Origin: an uncultured beta proteobacterium
GTDB lineage: Bacteria > Pseudomonadota > Gammaproteobacteria > Burkholderiales > Burkholderiaceae_C
NCBI GenBank assembly: GCA_963798255.1
Contig: CAWCSM010000007.1
Coordinates: forward strand, 364,274-428,273
Direction: 5' to 3'
DNA: 64,000 bases
Positions 11,516 to 51,363 of the stretch are shown here, piece by piece. Position numbers and translations under genes: made by a program. Within the stretch, counting starts at the first letter, position 1. Each line of letters begins with the position of its first letter. Below the pieces are notes generated by a model. The model was not told the DNA's origin. It worked only from the letters and a program-made list of their open reading frames with translations, and did not search any database.

Positions 11516-11592
11516 AGGCGCGTAGCTCAGCTGGTTAGAGCACCACCTTGACATGGTGGGGGTCGATGGTTCGAGTCCATTCGCGCCTACCA
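11516..11592 (+). tRNA. tRNA-Val (anticodon GAC)
   Basis: AGGCGCG acceptor stem, D-arm TAGCTCAGCTGGTTAGAGC, anticodon arm CCACC-TTGACAT-GGTGG, TTCGA T-loop and encoded CCA. A TAGAAT -10 box lies just upstream. Confidence 0.97.
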
Positions 11593-15344: not shown

Positions 15345-15420
15345 TGGCTCCCCGACCTGGGCTCGAACCAGGGACCTACGGATTAACAGTCCGGCGCTCT
15401 ACCGACTGAGCTATCGAGGA
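15345..15420 (-). tRNA. tRNA-Asn (anticodon GTT)
   Basis: Reverse complement TCCTCGATAGCTCAGTCGGTAGAGCGCCGGACTGTTAATCCGTAGGTCCCTGGTTCGAGCCCAGGTCGGGGAGCCA. A TATAAT -10 box lies at 15431-15436 (minus strand). Confidence 0.97.
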
Positions 15421-17633: not shown

Positions 17634-17700
17634 CGTGTTTCCCATGTCGATGGCAGGTCGGCGATGCCGCAGCACTCACCTGATGGGTGGCACTGGGCCG

Positions 17701-17790
17701 AGCTTCCCTGCGCGAGGATTACCTCAATCAGGTTCAAAGGGACTTTCTCAGTCGGAAGCCGCGCAAGGCCGCTTCCAACACCCCTAGCGA
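17701..17790 (-). ncRNA. TPP (thiamine pyrophosphate) riboswitch
   Basis: Minus strand reads CGCTAGGGGTG...CTGAGAAAGTCCCTTTGAACCTGATTGAGGTAATCCTCGCGCAGGGAAGCT, with the hallmark GGGG, CUGAGA, CCC-UGAACCUGA and GUAAU...AGGGAA elements. Confidence 0.93.
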
Positions 17791-17844
17791 ATGCGCCGCT
17801 GCAAGCCGCGGCGCGGTCAAACTATAACGTCAGGTGCCGACGCC

Positions 17845-23805: not shown

Positions 23806-25512
23806 TCAGGCGGGAATGGCTGCCGCGGTCGCGCGGCGCACCGCGTCGGCAGCGGCACGGAAGGCAGCGGGGCCGATGCGCCGGCTGGTGTCGATGAAGC
23901 GCTCGCTGCCCTGGCGCTGTTCGCGGTAGGTGTCGATCAGCGCTTCGATCACGTCGGGCACCTCGTCGGCCGCAAACGACGGGCCGATGACCTTGCCCGG
24001 CGCCGATGCGCCGCTGTGGGTGCTGCCGTCGGAGCCGGCAACGGTGATCTGGTACCACTCGGCGCCGTCCTTGTCCACGCCGAGGATGCCGATGTGCCCG
24101 CTGTGGTGGTGGCCGCAGGAGTTGATGCAGCCGCTGATGTGCAGGTCGATGTCGCCGATGTCGTGCAGCAGGTCGAGGTCGTCGAAGCGCTCGGTGATGG
24201 CCGCGGCGATCGGAATCGAGCGGGCGTTGGCGAGTGCGCAGAAGTCACCGCCGGGGCAGGCGATCATGTCGGTCAGCTGGCCGATGTTCGGCGTGGCGAA
24301 ACCGGCTTCGCGCGCTTCCAGCCACAGCGCGTGCAGGTCGTTCTGATGCACCCACGGCAGCAGCAGATTCTGCTGGTGCGTGACGCGCAGTTCGCCCTGG
24401 CTGAAACGGGTGGCCAGGTGCGCGGCCGCATCCATCTGGTCGGCGCTGGCATCGCCCGGCGGCTGGCCGGCGCGTTTCAGCGACAGCGTCACCGCGCGGT
24501 ACGCCGGCAGCTTGTGGGCGCGCACGTTGCGCTCGAGCCAGCGGCTGTAGGCCACCGGCTTGTCGCACGGGTTGGCGTGGTGGCTGTACGGCACGCCCGC
24601 GCTGACTCCCTCGGGCAGCGTGAAGCAGGCGGCGACGCGGTCCAGTTCTGCCTGCGGAATGATGTGCGCCGAGCCGGCGGCGTCGTGCGTCAGGAGGTAG
24701 TCGAACTCGGCCTGCACCGCATCGACGAACTTCTGGCCCTCGGACTTGACCAGGATCTTGATGCGCGCCTTGTACAGGTTGTCGCGCCGGCCGAGCCGGT
24801 TGTACACGCGCACGATGGCCTCGATGAAGACCAGGATCTGCTGCCACGGCACGAACTCGGCAATCTCGCTGCCGATCACCGGCGTGCGGCCCATGCCACC
24901 GCCGACCAGCACCTTGAAGCCGACCTCGCCGGCATCGTTCTTCAGCAACTGCAGGCCGATGTCGTGCCAGGCGATGGCGGCACGGTCCTCGCGCGCGCCG
25001 GTGACGGCAATCTTGAACTTGCGCGGCAGGTGGGCGAATTCCGGGTGCAGCGTGCTCCACTGGCGCAGGATTTCGCAGTAAGGGCGCGGATCGACCACCT
25101 CGTCCGGCGCGATGCCGGCGAGCGCGTCGCTGGTGATGTTGCGGATGCAGTTGCCGCTGGTCTGGATGCCGTGCATGTCCACCTCGGCCAGCAGATCCAT
25201 GACGTCGGCGGCGCGGTCGAGCGATATCCAGTTGTATTGCAGGTTCTGGCGCGTCGTGAAATGGCCGTAGTCGCGGTCGAACTCGCGTGCGATGCGCGCC
25301 AGCTGGTGCAACTGGCGGCTGCTCAGCTCGCCATAGGGCACAGCCACGCGCAGCATCGGGGCGTGGCGTTGCACGTACCAGCCGTTTTGCAGGCGCAGCG
25401 CCTTGAAATCGTCCTCGGCCAATTCGCCGCCCAGGTGGCGCTGCAGCTGGTCGCGAAACTGCGCGGCCCGTGCGCGGACGAAGGAACGATCGAATTCGGT
25501 GTAGCTGTACAT
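23806..25512 (-). CDS. cysI: Sulfite reductase hemoprotein (nitrite/sulfite reductase)
   Basis: MYSYTEFDR start, RLQNG, HFTTRQNLQ, TSGNCIRN, PRKFKIA, ACPGGDFC and SGCINSCG. Confidence 0.94.
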   Translation of the reverse strand: MYSYTEFDRSFVRARAAQFRDQLQRHLGGELAEDDFKALRLQNGWYVQRHAPMLRVAVPYGELSSRQLHQLARIAREFDRDYGHFTTRQNLQYNWISLDRAADVMDLLAEVDMHGIQTSGNCIRNITSDALAGIAPDEVVDPRPYCEILRQWSTLHPEFAHLPRKFKIAVTGAREDRAAIAWHDIGLQLLKNDAGEVGFKVLVGGGMGRTPVIGSEIAEFVPWQQILVFIEAIVRVYNRLGRRDNLYKARIKILVKSEGQKFVDAVQAEFDYLLTHDAAGSAHIIPQAELDRVAACFTLPEGVSAGVPYSHHANPCDKPVAYSRWLERNVRAHKLPAYRAVTLSLKRAGQPPGDASADQMDAAAHLATRFSQGELRVTHQQNLLLPWVHQNDLHALWLEAREAGFATPNIGQLTDMIACPGGDFCALANARSIPIAAAITERFDDLDLLHDIGDIDLHISGCINSCGHHHSGHIGILGVDKDGAEWYQITVAGSDGSTHSGASAPGKVIGPSFAADEVPDVIEALIDTYREQRQGSERFIDTSRRIGPAAFRAAADAVRRATAAAIPA

Positions 25513-25572
25513 GAGTGGCCCACTGGTGCACTGAGCCCGCAGGCCCGTATCAGGGTTGCACTCTATGCAGGC

Positions 25573-25613
25573 TGCTTATGCTTGAAAACTACATAAAAGT
25601 GGAATGCTTATGC
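25573..25613. promoter_or_regulatory. Candidate LysR (CysB-like) operator upstream of cysI
   Basis: TGCTTATGC direct repeat at 25573 and 25605 (32-bp period), plus the inverted repeat TTATG-N11-CATAA (25576-25596) in an AT-rich patch. Confidence 0.5.
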
Positions 25614-25644
25614 AGAAAGGGCCTGTCAACGGTCGCCGTCGCGC

Positions 25645-25673
25645 AAAAGAAAAGGCCCGGTCGAAACCGGGCC
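25645..25673 (-). terminator. Intrinsic terminator of the phaP transcript / candidate sRNA
   Basis: Minus strand GGCCCGGT-TTCG-ACCGGGCC-TTTTCTTTT, i.e. a UUCG tetraloop stem plus a U-tract. Confidence 0.9.
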
Positions 25674-25795
25674 CGAAGATACCTTGAGAGGGGGTGTCAG
25701 AAGGTATCGAGGAGACAACCATCCACATTGCCGCCAGGCCAGGCCCGACGACTTCCATGTGATTGGCAATCCCGTTCGAAAGTTCAATCACCCCC
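25645..25795 (-). ncRNA. Candidate phaP 3'UTR-derived CU-rich (anti-SD) small RNA
   Basis: Three consecutive stems: GUGAUUG/CAAUCAC; GAUACCUU/AAGGUAUC with a C-rich loop CUGACACCCCCUCUC; and the terminator. Single-stranded AUGGUUGUCUCCU abuts the middle stem and is complementary to the aceE RBS and start. Confidence 0.6.
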
Positions 25796-25833
25796 AGCAG
25801 ACCCGTCACAGGGGCGGGCCGGCCAGCGCACGA

Positions 25834-26382
25834 TCAGGCGCGGCGCGCCTTGCTGGCGGCTTGCGACGCCTTCACGGCCGTGCTGGTGACGGCCTGGAAG
25901 TTGGCTTCGGCCACGTCGGCGGCCTGCTTCGACGCCTTGCTCACGCTTTCATAGGCGTTGTTGGCGGCGGCCATCGCCGACTTCACCAGCGCCACGGCGT
26001 TCTCGCTGCCGGCGGGTGCGTTCTTCATCGCCGTGTCCACGGCGGCGGCGAACTTCTTCTGCGCTTCGGCGACTTGCGCTTCGGCGACCTTGGTCACTTC
26101 GGCGTTGGTCGAGGCGGCGATGTCATAGACATGGCGGCTGTAGGCGGCGGCCTTCTCGGCGGTCGGCTGCAGCATCGACGCTTGCAGCGCCAGCAGTTCC
26201 TGCGCGTCCTTCACCGACAGCGCGGCGCGGGTGTTGTCGGCGGCTTCGGTCCAGGCGGCCTTGGCCACCTGCATGTTCAGCTCGACGAGCTTCTCTACGC
26301 CTTCGAATGCCTTGTTGGTCAGGCCGAAGAGGGTTTCGACGTTGGCCTTGTGGGCGGCCATAACTTGTTCAGCGGTCATCAT
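25834..26382 (-). CDS. phaP: Phasin (PHA granule-associated protein)
   Basis: [35 protein letters not shown]...[34 protein letters not shown], the betaproteobacterial PhaP1 type. Confidence 0.93.
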
Positions 26383-26412
26383 GTTTCAATCTCCTGGGTT
26401 GGGTCTAGAGCG

Positions 26413-26503
26413 TTTGCTGCACTGTATTGCTGCACTGCAACATGAAACGGATTCTAAAGACTCGCTCGGGCATTGCAAGCACTATTTGCTGCATTGCAGC
26501 AAA
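26413..26503. promoter_or_regulatory. PhaR-type operator boxes upstream of phaP
   Basis: Palindrome TTTGCTGC-ATT-GCAGCAAA (26485-26503) and tandem TTGCTGCACTG x2 (26414, 26427). TGC-N3-GCA-rich boxes are the known PhaR-site type. Confidence 0.7.
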
Positions 26504-26545
26504 GTAGAGTCGAAACCCTACGCGGCGCTCGAGCCCGGCTTTTCC

Positions 26546-27514
26546 ATGCAGGCTTTTCACTCCGATCACTTCACGCTCGCGCTGCCGCCGGGCCACAGCT
26601 TCCCGATGAGCAAGTACCGCTTGCTGCGTGAAGCAGTCGAAGGCGAGCTGCCGGCCGTCCGGGTGCACGAAGCGCAGCCGGCCAGCGACGGCGAACTGGC
26701 GTTGGTGCACGACCCGGCCTATGTCGGCGCGGTCGCCGCAGGGCAGCTGTCGTCGGCGCAGCAGCGCGAGATCGGATTTCCGTGGTCGCTGCGCATGGCC
26801 GAACGCGCACGGCGTTCGGTCGGCGCGACCATCGCTGCGGCGCGCGCAGCGCTGGCCGAGGGCGTGGGCGCGAACCTGGCCGGCGGCACGCACCATGCCT
26901 TTGCCGACCGCGGCTCGGGTTACTGCGTGTTCAACGATGTCGCGGTGGCCGCGCGGCTGATGCAGGCCGAATGGCAGCGCCGCCGGCGAACGTGGCTGCG
27001 CGTGCTGGTCATCGACCTGGACGTGCATCAGGGCAATGGCACGGCGGCCATCTTCGCCGATGACCCGACGGTGTTCACGCTGTCGCTGCACGGTGCGAAA
27101 AACTTCCCGGCGCGCAAGGAGCGCAGCGACCTCGACATCGAACTGCCCGACGGCTGCGGTGACGACGAATACCTGGCTGCGTTAGAAGCCGCACTGGCAC
27201 AAGTGGGGCAGCGCCATGCCACCGACCCCTTCGGGCTGGCGTTCTATGTCGCCGGTGCCGATCCGCACGAGGGCGATCGCCTGGGCCGCCTGAAGCTGAG
27301 CTTCGACGGCCTGGCCCGCCGCGATGCGAGAGTGTTCGACGCGTTGCGCGGGCACGGCCTTCCGGTGGCGGTGTCGATGGCCGGCGGCTATGGCCGCGAC
27401 GTGGCCAGCACCGTGGCCGTGCACCTGAAGACGCTCGAACTGGCGCTGCACAGCTGGCACGCCTGCTCGGGCCACAAAGGGGCGCTGCAACAATCACCGC
27501 TCCAGACACCATGA
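26546..27514 (+). CDS. Zn-dependent histone-deacetylase-family protein (AcuC/HDAC-like)
   Basis: GHSFPMSKY, GGTHHA, GYCVFND, DLDVHQGNG, AGADP and GGY motifs. Confidence 0.92.
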   Translation: MQAFHSDHFTLALPPGHSFPMSKYRLLREAVEGELPAVRVHEAQPASDGELALVHDPAYVGAVAAGQLSSAQQREIGFPWSLRMAERARRSVGATIAAARAALAEGVGANLAGGTHHAFADRGSGYCVFNDVAVAARLMQAEWQRRRRTWLRVLVIDLDVHQGNGTAAIFADDPTVFTLSLHGAKNFPARKERSDLDIELPDGCGDDEYLAALEAALAQVGQRHATDPFGLAFYVAGADPHEGDRLGRLKLSFDGLARRDARVFDALRGHGLPVAVSMAGGYGRDVASTVAVHLKTLELALHSWHACSGHKGALQQSPLQTP

Positions 27515-39116: not shown

Positions 39117-39269
39117 GGGCGCATTATCCGAGTGCGCTCGCGCGTTGCCTTCGCCCACTTGTTCTTGTCACTATATAAAACGCAGATGCACTATTTGAAA
39201 TTTTCATCATGCTGTGGCAAACTAGCGGCGCTGCAAGAATGACCTCGAGACCACGATAAGGAGACAACC

Positions 39270-41999
39270 ATGTCCGCCATGCCCGAGCCCAGCCGTGACC
39301 CGTCCGCCGACGACGTCGATCCCCAGGAAACGCGTGAGTGGCTCGATGCACTGAACGCGGTCATCGGTGCCGAGGGCGGTGAACGTGCCCACTTCCTGCT
39401 CGAACAACTGATCGAGGAAGCGCGACAGAACGGCATCGACATGCCGTTTTCGGCGAAGACGGGTTACGTCAACACCATCGAGCCCGCCGACGAGGAACAC
39501 AGCCCCGGCAACCTCGAACTCGAAGGCCGCCTGCGCGCCTACATGCGCTGGAACGCGATGGCGCTGGTGGTCAAGGCCAACCGACATGATCCGGCCGACG
39601 GCGGTGACCTCGGGGGTCACATCAGCAGCTTCGCGTCGGTGGCGCACATGTTCGCCGCCGGCTTCAACCATTTCTGGCATGCCGAAAGCGAGGGCCACGG
39701 TGGTGACCTGCTGTACATCCAAGGTCACAGCGCGCCGGGCATCTATGCGCGCGCCTTCATGGAAGGTCGCCTGAGCGAGGAGCAACTGCTCAACTTCCGC
39801 CAGGAGGTGGGCGGCAAGGGCGTGTCGAGCTATCCGCACCCGAAGCTGATGCCCGAGTTCTGGCAGTTCCCGACCGTGTCGATGGGCCTGGGCCCGTTGA
39901 TGGCGATCTACCAGGCGCGCTTCCTGAAGTACCTGCATGCGCGGGGCATCGCCGACACCGCCAACCGCAAGGTGTGGGTGTTCTGCGGCGACGGCGAGAT
40001 GGACGAGCCCGAGTCGCTCGGCGCCATCGGGCTGGCGGCGCGCGAAAAGCTGGACAACCTGATCTTCGTCATCAATTGCAACCTGCAGCGCCTGGACGGC
40101 CCGGTGCGCGGCAACGGCAAGATCATCCAGGAGTTGGAAGGCGAGTTCCGCGGCTCGGGCTGGAACGTCATCAAGCTGATCTGGGGCGCCAACTGGGATC
40201 CGCTGCTGGCGCGCGACAAGGACGGCGCGCTGCGCAAGATCATGCTCGACACGCTCGACGGCGATTACCAGGCCTTCAAGGCCAACGACGGCGCCTTCGT
40301 GCGCAAGCATTTTTTCGGCCGTGACCCGCGCACCTTGGAGATGGTTGCCAAGATGAGCGACAAGGATGTGTGGAACCTGCGCCGCGGCGGCCACGATGCA
40401 CACAAGGTGCATGCCGCCTTCCACAGGGCCAACACGCATACCGGCCAGCCGACGGTGCTGCTGGTGAAAACGGTCAAGGGCTGGGGCATGGGCAGTGCCG
40501 GCGAAGGCAAGAACACTGCGCACCAGACGAAGAAGCTGACCGATGACGACATCCGCTTCTTCCGCGACCGCTTCAACATTCCGGTGCCCGACAGCGAATT
40601 GAGCAAGCTGCCCTTTGTCAAGCCGGCCGACGACACGCCGGAGATGAAGTACCTGCACGAACGTCGACAGGCGCTCGGCGGCTACCTGCCCAAGCGCCGC
40701 ACCAAGGCCGACGAGAGCTTCACCGTGCCGTCGCTTGGAACCTTCAAGGCGGTGCTCGATGCCACCGCCGAAGGGCGCGAGATCAGCACCACACAAGCGT
40801 TCGTGCGTTTCCTGACGCAGCTGCTTCGCGACAAGGCGCTGGGCCCGCGCGTGGTGCCGATCCTGGTCGACGAGGCGCGCACCTTCGGCATGGAGGGCCT
40901 CTTCCGCCAGATCGGCATCTACAACCCCGAGGGCCAGAAGTACACGCCGGTGGACAAGGAACAGGTGATGTACTACCGCGAGTCGATCGACGGGCAGGTG
41001 CTGCAGGAAGGCATCAACGAAGCCGGTGGCATGGCCAGCTGGATCGCCGCCGCCACCTCGTACTCGACCAACAACCGGGTCATGCTGCCTTTCTATGTGT
41101 ACTACTCGATGTTCGGCTTCCAGCGCATCGGCGACCTGGCCTGGGCCGCCGGCGACATGCAGGCGCGCGGCTTCCTGCTCGGTGGCACCAGCGGGCGCAC
41201 GACGCTGAACGGCGAAGGCCTGCAGCACGAAGACGGGCACAGCCACATCCTTGCCGGCACCATTCCCAACTGCGTCAGCTACGACCCCACCTTCGCGCAC
41301 GAGGTGGGGGTGATCCTGCACCACGGCCTGAAGCGCATGGTCGAGAAACAGGACAACGTGTACTTCTACCTGACCTTGCTGAACGAGAACTACCCGATGC
41401 CGGGCCTGAAGGCCGGTACCGAGGAGCAGATCATCAAGGGCATGTACCTGCTGGAAGAGGCTGCCCAGGCGCCGGCGAAGAAATCCTCGAAGGCCGTGCC
41501 GCTCGTGAACCTGCTTGGCAGCGGCACCATCCTGCGCGAATCACAGGCTGCCCGCCAGTTGCTGCTGGACGATTGGGGCGTGGCCGCCAACGTCTGGAGT
41601 TGCCCGAGCTTCAACGAACTCACCCGGGAAGGACAGGATTGCGAGCGCTGGAACCTGCTGCACCCGACCGACAAGCCGCGGGTGCCGTTCGTCACCCAGC
41701 AGCTCGAAGCGCACGCCGGTCCGGTGGTTGCGTCCACCGACTACATGAAGAACTACGCCGAGCAGATTCGCGCGTTCATCCCCAAGGGCCGGGCATACAA
41801 GGTGCTGGGCACCGACGGCTTCGGCCGCAGCGACTTCCGCAACAAGCTGCGTGAGCATTTCGAGATCGACCGTCACTACATCGTGGTGGCGGCGTTGAAG
41901 GCGCTGGCCGACGAGGGCGCCCTGCCGGCGGCCAAGGTGGCCGAGGCGCTGAAGAAATACGGCATCGACGTCGAGCGCATCAACCCGTTGCACGCCTGA
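39270..41999 (+). CDS. aceE: Pyruvate dehydrogenase E1 (homodimeric)
   Basis: DVDPQETREW, GGHISS, GDGEMDEPES, NCNLQRLDG and GTDGFGRSD. RBS is AGGAGA. Confidence 0.97.
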   Translation: MSAMPEPSRDPSADDVDPQETREWLDALNAVIGAEGGERAHFLLEQLIEEARQNGIDMPFSAKTGYVNTIEPADEEHSPGNLELEGRLRAYMRWNAMALVVKANRHDPADGGDLGGHISSFASVAHMFAAGFNHFWHAESEGHGGDLLYIQGHSAPGIYARAFMEGRLSEEQLLNFRQEVGGKGVSSYPHPKLMPEFWQFPTVSMGLGPLMAIYQARFLKYLHARGIADTANRKVWVFCGDGEMDEPESLGAIGLAAREKLDNLIFVINCNLQRLDGPVRGNGKIIQELEGEFRGSGWNVIKLIWGANWDPLLARDKDGALRKIMLDTLDGDYQAFKANDGAFVRKHFFGRDPRTLEMVAKMSDKDVWNLRRGGHDAHKVHAAFHRANTHTGQPTVLLVKTVKGWGMGSAGEGKNTAHQTKKLTDDDIRFFRDRFNIPVPDSELSKLPFVKPADDTPEMKYLHERRQALGGYLPKRRTKADESFTVPSLGTFKAVLDATAEGREISTTQAFVRFLTQLLRDKALGPRVVPILVDEARTFGMEGLFRQIGIYNPEGQKYTPVDKEQVMYYRESIDGQVLQEGINEAGGMASWIAAATSYSTNNRVMLPFYVYYSMFGFQRIGDLAWAAGDMQARGFLLGGTSGRTTLNGEGLQHEDGHSHILAGTIPNCVSYDPTFAHEVGVILHHGLKRMVEKQDNVYFYLTLLNENYPMPGLKAGTEEQIIKGMYLLEEAAQAPAKKSSKAVPLVNLLGSGTILRESQAARQLLLDDWGVAANVWSCPSFNELTREGQDCERWNLLHPTDKPRVPFVTQQLEAHAGPVVASTDYMKNYAEQIRAFIPKGRAYKVLGTDGFGRSDFRNKLREHFEIDRHYIVVAALKALADEGALPAAKVAEALKKYGIDVERINPLHA

Positions 42000-42032
42000 G
42001 CCCGAGTCAACAAGAAAACACGGAGACGACGC

Positions 42033-51227: not shown

Positions 51228-51363
51228 ATCGAAATGTGATTTCTGTTTTTAGAATATGGAATTACACCAGGCTTTCACCGTAGAATGCGTGCACGATTCG
51301 GCTCAGACTTCAGCGGCGCAGCCTGGGTCGCGCAAGACCGACGACAACACGGAGACAAGCGAG

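Follow-up and report, generated by a model that had tools for sequence, protein, structure and literature searches.

What does the stretch of DNA between the phasin gene phaP and its transcription terminator encode, and which genes, if any, does its product control? The locus lies in a 64,000-nucleotide stretch (the window) of the genome of an uncultured beta proteobacterium, and a preliminary description of it, made from the sequence alone, had proposed a small RNA (sRNA) derived from the phaP 3' untranslated region (3'UTR) that represses aceE, linking storage granules to pyruvate dehydrogenase. Here, we compare this locus with its counterparts in related genomes and with known regulatory RNAs. 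Our main reading, to which we assign a probability of roughly 0.7, is that 25645-25785 on the minus strand would be the gene for a trans-acting, translation-blocking sRNA in the phaP 3' region, representing a phaP-linked branch of the double-hairpin RNAs.

The conserved region downstream of phaP

The RNA-coding stretch sits 3' of phaP on the minus strand (25646-25790), and the next gene on that strand, a sulfite-reductase-like gene, starts at 25512. The locus comprises the following elements:

25834-26382, minus strand: phaP, encoding a phasin of 182 aa (open reading frame; Pfam Phasin_2, 98 bits, E 3e-28; 80 orthologous loci)
25730-25752, minus strand: 5' stem-loop 1 of 10 bp, predicted by folding, about 6 nt after the -10 box described below; variable in sequence, with pairing kept by compensatory changes
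25709-25722, minus strand: single-stranded seed AUGGUUGUCUCCUC, with the conserved part GGUUGUCUCCUC; columns invariant or at least 90% conserved in 59 sequences, unpaired in the folds
25678-25708, minus strand: hairpin 2 of 8 bp, with arms GAUACCUU and AAGGUAUC and the C/U-rich loop CUGACACCCCCUCUC, from fold and alignment
25645-25674, minus strand: intrinsic terminator (9 bp, UUCG loop, U-run), from the fold and many compensatory pairs; common to phaP and the RNA

The RNA spanning 25753-25646 on the minus strand folds with a z of -4.2 into three hairpins and a single-stranded AAUGUGGAUGGUUGUCUCCUC (also given as AUGGUUGUCUCCU), and a short form starting at GUUGUCUCC gives a clean double hairpin with a z of -4.85. 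The open reading frame, the Phasin_2 match and the fold agree with the preliminary description in that phaP is followed by a structured minus-strand region and a UUCG terminator; the order of stems, single strand, loop and terminator given there also stands, with the correction that the first stem has 10 bp rather than 7. In hairpin 2, a change from G-C to A-U affecting both arms is specific to the clade, and the loop is C/U-rich in relatives, making CUGACACCCCCUCUC a possible second pairing site. Only one terminator-like site was found in 25300-26600, at 25674-25653, between phaP and the next gene, and because the only terminator of phaP is thus shared, the phaP-linked RNA still counts as a 3'UTR RNA. 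On the other side of the gene, the phaP promoter contains a perfect palindrome, TTTGCTGCA-T-TGCAGCAAA, at 26485-26503 and two further TTGCTGCA boxes at 26414-26442, the boxes flanking a sigma-70-like TTGCAA-16-TAGAAT; the palindrome and boxes (26414-26503) look like PhaR operators.

Conservation was assessed in 80 phaP loci from many genera of the Rubrivivax/Ideonella/Piscinibacter-type group. The motif TGTCTCC occurs 3' of the phaP stop codon in 59 of the 80, mostly at a distance of 50-130 nt (10 nt in two loci, 205 nt in one), and falls within the block GGTTGTCTCCTCGGTACC, which is followed by a hairpin and a terminator. Across the alignment of these 59 sequences, the core GGUUGUCUCCUCGGUACC / GGTTGTCTCCTCGGTACC is invariant or at least 90% conserved in each column, and 14 of the 19 predicted pairs show compensatory changes; conservation of stems and seed downstream of phaP, which the preliminary description had named as a check on its proposal, is thereby borne out. 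A search of the GTDB family allowing at most one mismatch detected the 17-mer core in 70 of 301 genomes, usually as a single copy in each, and in 50 of 201 genera, compared with 4 matches for the control. Among the matches listed for the 17-mer alone, 12 loci picked without reference to phaP all carry phaP directly upstream on the same strand, at 70-82% identity (12/12). A blastn search with the element in 40 relatives recovered the closest ones only; pattern searches and searches anchored on phaP succeeded instead. The phaP-linked RNA is present in cultured strains of Ideonella, Piscinibacter, Caldimonas, Albitalea and Roseateles. On this comparative evidence, we take the stretch after phaP to be a real, conserved regulatory RNA gene.

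As to its class, a scan against Rfam aligned the RNA to the full length of the RF02278 model with 31.9 bits (E 3e-4), below the gathering score of 50, and the phaP-linked RNAs of relatives reach 33-38 bits against the same threshold. Nevertheless, the class traits are present: the unpaired 5' seed UGUCUCCUC, complementary to the Shine-Dalgarno (SD) sequence, which in the window (25709-25722) corresponds to positions 1-9 of the model; a first hairpin with a C/U-rich loop and a second that is the intrinsic terminator; and several siblings, with three units of seed, hairpin and terminator in the genome (C7:389990, C4:1353693 and C10:63791). The earlier assignment to the Rfam type of toxic sRNAs of Betaproteobacteria thus holds for the anti-SD seed and the full-length alignment and fails on the score. 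Judged by sequence and predicted structure, the phaP-linked RNA is a divergent branch of the double-hairpin, "toxic" or S17 sRNAs, lying outside RF02278 as Rfam now defines it.

Both siblings lie outside the window. The first, at C4:1353631-1353693 on the minus strand, is a true RF02278 member with 56.6 bits, and the second, at C10:63791 on the plus strand, combines the same UUGUCUCCUCC seed with a hairpin and a terminator. One relative's phaP-linked RNA (L074:2189-2263) scores 35.1 bits against ncS54 (RF02871, gathering score 43), pointing to a possible kinship of several Burkholderia sRNA families through a shared layout. Within the window, only three Rfam matches exceed their thresholds, namely a TPP riboswitch at 17688-17795 on the minus strand (57.2 bits) and two tRNA genes, at 11516-11589 (plus strand) and 15348-15420 (minus strand).

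A putative promoter between phaP and the RNA

Two short boxes precede stem-loop 1:

25780-25785, minus strand: -35 box GAACTT of a putative ECF promoter of the RpoE/AlgU type, found with constant spacing in 52 of the 55 distinct relatives
25758-25762, minus strand: -10 box TCACA, 17 nt after the -35 box; mostly TCTGA in relatives

The pattern GAACTT-N16/17-TC[TA][GC]A is found upstream of stem-loop 1 in 45 of 61 loci, in nearly all of which 38-42 nt separate its end from the seed. The AlgU/RpoE consensus is GAACTT-N16/17-TCtgA (PMC10651043); the box in the window matches this architecture with GAACTT-N17, its -10 element TCACA differing from TCTGA, and an rpoE orthologue is present in the genome. 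Between the two elements, the spacer is constant in length and variable in sequence, as expected for a promoter.

The main competing view is that the promoter is of the sigma-32 (RpoH) heat-shock type, or that there is none and the RNA is released exclusively from phaP mRNA by processing. The sequence TTGAAC...CATCT does overlap with the sigma-32 consensus, and the search pattern also matches promoters of HtpX-like proteases; htpX in the same genome has TTGAAC-N13-CCCCATCT. Family-wide, TGAACTT-N16/17-TCTGA picks up promoters of two kinds, those at htpX resembling the sigma-32 class and those at dsbA the ECF class, so that a search with this pattern alone could not settle the sigma factor. The alignment was therefore re-anchored on GAAC and TC only, which retained 52 of 55 distinct loci and left the other positions unselected. 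In these loci, the unselected -35 positions after GAA are C in 98%, T in 94% and T in 92%, and the last A of the -10 box is conserved in 90%, whereas the C-run that a sigma-32 -10 box should show reaches only 31-62%; the positions specific to RpoE/AlgU are thus the well-conserved ones. The sigma-32 interpretation is further opposed by the promoters of groES, dnaK, htpG and clpB in this genome, which read TTGAAA-N13/14-CCCnAnnT and contain neither GAACTT nor TCTGA, and by that of dsbA, where GAACTT-N16-TCACT stands without TTGAA or CAT and where at least 15 of 25 relatives have GAAC(T/C)(T/A)-N16/17-TCnnn. On the other hand, the 400 nt preceding rpoE contained no GAACTT-type motif in any of 28 genomes, and several relatives have no box before the RNA. 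Weighing these observations, we regard a sigma-32 promoter, or none at all, as unlikely, and consider an ECF promoter of the RpoE/AlgU type somewhat the better supported identity for the internal box.

Other searches define how restricted the box is. A position-weight-matrix scan of the genome returned no other strong promoter site of the same type, a strict regular expression gave 2 matches there against about 3 expected by chance, and the GAACTT...TCnnA box is absent at both siblings (C4:1353631-1353693 and C10:63791).

Several related features were noted along the way. The dsbA gene (C4:1084269 region) follows a SPOR-domain-like gene, and its ECF-type box lies just after the stop codon of that gene in many genera. 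At their rpoE loci, most of the 28 genomes have a conserved GCGGTATATTC box that resembles a sigma-70 -10 element and falls within the last part of the preceding ORF, about 60-130 nt ahead of rpoE. In four other genera of the family (L093, L094, L110 and L116), TGAACTT-N16/17-(C)CATCTGA stands in front of a gene for a DUF3567 protein (95-100 aa), and this gene may belong to the same stress regulon.

The distance from the phaP stop codon to the box varies from 7 to 139 nt in the 45 relatives that have it, with a T-run in 12 of the 45. At loci of the Roseateles/Paucibacter type, 10 nt separate the phaP stop from the seed, and several other loci are without a box; with no room for a promoter, or no box, the RNA of these relatives would come only from the phaP transcript. 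The general state would accordingly be an RNA embedded in the phaP 3'UTR, to which most lineages, including that of the window, add a putative internal promoter. Thus, the strict link to phaP and the shared terminator uphold the 3'UTR origin originally proposed, which needs to be amended by the promoter box that most copies have of their own, a feature that is new here. Given a putative ECF promoter in most copies, phaP and its regulator PhaR are probably not the sole input, and the phaP-linked RNA probably has two transcriptional inputs.

Predicted targets of the seed

Three ribosome-binding sites (RBSs) in the window match the seed:

39259-39271, plus strand: SD, spacer and the AT of the ATG of aceE, complementary to the seed at 13 of 13 positions (candidate target, sequence match)
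42022-42030, plus strand: RBS of aceF, GGAGACGAC (weaker candidate target, sequence match)
51351-51358, plus strand: RBS of phaC, whose product has a PhaC_N domain, GGAGACAA (candidate target, sequence match)

All three are located as first reported, and the 13-mer AGGAGACAACCAT occurs in the window only at 25710-25722 and, again, at the aceE start (39259-39271); two matches were obtained in 0 of 100 shuffles. In the whole 5.25-Mb genome it is found three times, namely antisense in the sRNA, at aceE and at a gene for a DctP-type solute-binding protein, placing aceE among the best two or three seed matches of the genome. However, GGAGACA is present at 84 RBS-like sites in the genome and AGGAGACA at about 35, and the spacer after GGAGACA is A/C-rich, with a probability of about 0.4-0.5 for each further matching base. 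With such spacers, about 3 RBSs of the form AGGAGACAACC are expected and 3 are seen, so that the 13/13 match is real and not improbable, as had been cautioned from the outset on the grounds that this SD is common.

Examined across the genome, the sites point to a broader set. Based on crude gene calls and a crude rule for signal peptides, both applied to the window's own genome, signal-peptide proteins make up 34% of the genes with a GGAGACA RBS, compared to 8.9% of genes with other GGAG RBSs (Fisher p 3.6e-9), and no such enrichment was seen for the control RBSs GGAGAT, GGAGAA and GGAGCC. The roughly 80 GGAGACA genes are enriched 3-4 times for exported proteins, mainly solute-binding proteins of TRAP and ABC transporters. 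Among the 30 genes with GGAGACAA are 7 for DctP (TRAP), 3 for Peripla_BP_6 and 1 each for Peripla_BP_4 and TctB, and the others include those for AceE, PhaC, malic enzyme, an AMP-binding ligase, enoyl-CoA hydratase and two short-chain dehydrogenases. This distribution suggests that the GGAGAC(A) variant of the RBS marks a regulon at the level of translation, set by the two bases after GGAG, although paralogy, expression level or some other factor could instead account for the enrichment at genes for exported proteins. Since the seed is common to two siblings, the enrichment is not assignable to the phaP-linked RNA alone.

The model of the preliminary description was narrower, the main task of the RNA being repression of aceE, together with aceF and phaC, as a feedback on acetyl-CoA supply coupled to PhaR and the phasin. 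In its favor, aceE has one of only two RBSs in the genome with the full match, GGAGACAA occurs also at phaC and the malic enzyme gene, and the RNA is strictly linked to phaP, with the TTGCTGCA-type palindromes in the phaP promoter. In a naive RNAduplex scan, aceE ranks 14th among 6061 crude gene starts, a ranking dominated by spurious G+C-rich duplexes. Moreover, GGAGAC is found in 27 of 27 aceE orthologues, mostly followed by R and then A, which, set against the variable RBS of phaP, indicates that GGAGAC at aceE is under constraint. This constraint, however, is not assignable to the phaP-linked RNA in particular, as two siblings share the seed, and the same aceE site persists in five genomes from which the phaP-linked RNA is missing. 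The match beyond GGAGAC(R)A, that is, its ACC-AU extension, is not conserved in the 27 orthologues, the nearest relative having GGAGACGCCC. Most of the matching RBSs, furthermore, belong to solute-binding proteins, and most copies of the RNA have a promoter box of their own. A feedback centered on aceE therefore appears unlikely. A role of aceE as the defining target is not supported, with the 13/13 match specific to this genome and the site kept in the absence of the RNA; on sequence grounds, aceE is instead a plausible member of a broad target set, and a special link of the RNA to pyruvate dehydrogenase is weakly supported.

The leader of aceE has a feature of its own. TGTG(C/G)(G/C)A(A/C)ACT at 39213-39223, about 45-60 nt upstream of the aceE start, is conserved across genera in an otherwise variable leader, and could be a regulator site or a promoter element.

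It is quite improbable that the region is solely the 3'UTR and terminator of phaP, acting in cis through mRNA stability or pairing with the gene's own RBS and giving rise to no trans-acting RNA. The terminator is indeed shared with phaP, the seed lies 10 nt after the stop codon in some relatives, and the phaP RBS AGGAGAU can make about 7 pairs with the seed. Yet the seed is identical to those of the free-standing siblings in the same genome and of the trans-acting RF02278 and S17 RNAs, a conserved promoter-like box separates the stop codon from the RNA, and the phaP RBS, which is variable in the clade and reads GGAGAT in 49 of 80 loci, is a poorer match than those of many other genes. A small protein, for instance of 77 or 53 aa from the minus-strand ORFs 25576..25809 and 25626..25787, was rejected as scarcely credible, given that ORFs of such size are expected by chance at 68% G+C, that indels in the loops are not multiples of three and that conservation tracks base-pairing rather than codons.

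For the trans-acting sRNA, we propose the following course of events. The RpoE/AlgU-type promoter GAACTT-N17-TCACA would yield a primary transcript of about 105 nt starting from stem-loop 1, and read-through of phaP transcripts would be a second source of the RNA. RNase E would probably cut at the 5' edge of the seed (GG/UUGUCUCC), as in S17 of Bordetella pertussis, leaving an Hfq-associated double hairpin of about 72 nt that begins with the seed. The seed, possibly aided by the C/U-rich loop, would then pair with SD regions of the form (A)GGAGAC(A)(A) and block initiation. Its target set would be broad, with about 80 GGAGACA genes and 200 GGAGAC genes in the genome, consisting mainly of genes for exported TRAP and ABC solute-binding proteins and of a smaller pyruvate/acetyl-CoA group (aceE, phaC, malic enzyme and acyl-CoA ligase). 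The likely outcome would be reduced synthesis of periplasmic uptake proteins when phasin expression is high or the ECF sigma factor is active, and perhaps, under the same conditions, reduced entry of carbon into acetyl-CoA. The full dual-input scheme, with PhaR-controlled phaP transcription and an RpoE/AlgU-type sigma factor feeding a single anti-SD seed that throttles solute-binding proteins along with aceE, phaC and malic enzyme, is put forward tentatively, as a possibility that the odds do not favor. If true, it would amount to an envelope-stress sRNA directed against periplasmic binding proteins, not outer-membrane proteins, which about one genus in four of the family would have incorporated into a storage-granule gene.

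Comparison with known regulatory RNAs

The double-hairpin RNAs of Burkholderia are 57-92 nt long and have C/U-rich stretches that pair with RBSs; one of them, ncS27, is processed to a short form, and its overexpression slows growth (PMC5688073). The phaP-linked RNA resembles RF02278 and these Burkholderia RNAs (ncS03, ncS05, ncS27 and ncS62, or bdhR) in the UGUCUCCUC seed, the hairpin with a C/U-rich loop, the terminator, the existence of siblings and the predicted pairing at RBSs of genes for transport and carbon metabolism. It departs from RF02278 in hairpin 1 of the double hairpin, which has GGUACC arms and a larger loop, and in its additional 5' stem-loop, its constant location behind phaP and the ECF-type box in front of it.

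S17 of Bordetella pertussis is a 190-nt sigma-A transcript, enhanced by BvgA, from the intergenic region BP3151/coq7 (Sim et al., bioRxiv 2024, PMC11722255). Cleavage by RNase E at the seed's 5' boundary yields the stable, Hfq-bound S17S of 67 nt, which represses about 70 genes by pairing with RBSs, including 32 transporter-related genes or operons (PMC11722255). S17 and, by prediction, the phaP-linked RNA share the arrangement of a longer transcript with an internal seed just before the double hairpin, as well as a similar predicted target profile, and it is reasonable to view the predicted target set as mirroring the S17 regulon, with aceE and phaC as candidates within it and not at its core. 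Unlike the intergenic, sigma-A-dependent S17, the phaP-linked RNA lies behind phaP and has an RpoE/AlgU-like box.

In genomic arrangement, the closest parallels are the "type I" 3'UTR sRNAs MicL and DapZ, which lie at the 3' end of a protein-coding gene, share its terminator and have a separate promoter. MicL, which targets lpp, is transcribed from a sigma-E-type promoter within the coding sequence of cutC and matures into a shorter, active RNA. The type I trait of a terminator shared with the upstream mRNA, with none in between, is found in the window (25300-26600). The phaP-linked RNA is unrelated in sequence to MicL or DapZ; its box occupies the short gap that follows the phaP stop codon, and it is predicted to target periplasmic binding proteins.

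The connection with storage metabolism recalls MmgR (alpha-r8) of Sinorhizobium meliloti, an anti-SD-type sRNA tied to PHB metabolism and to control by PhaR/AniA (PMC8401924). Membership of the phaP-linked RNA in that family (RF00519) was rejected, at 21.6 bits versus 41. MmgR is a free-standing alphaproteobacterial gene that represses phasins, whereas the RNA described here lies downstream of a phasin gene whose RBS is a poor match to the seed. A review from 2021 stated that no riboregulation of PHB metabolism had been described for Betaproteobacteria (PMC8401924).

Compared with these systems, the mechanism itself, that of an anti-SD sRNA, is not new; the phaP-linked variant of the known class is. 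The phasin locus thereby gains a conserved RNA output, and the S17/bdhR class is extended to a branch that Rfam does not capture, which offers possible links from storage state to nutrient uptake and from an ECF sigma factor to the translation of periplasmic binding proteins.
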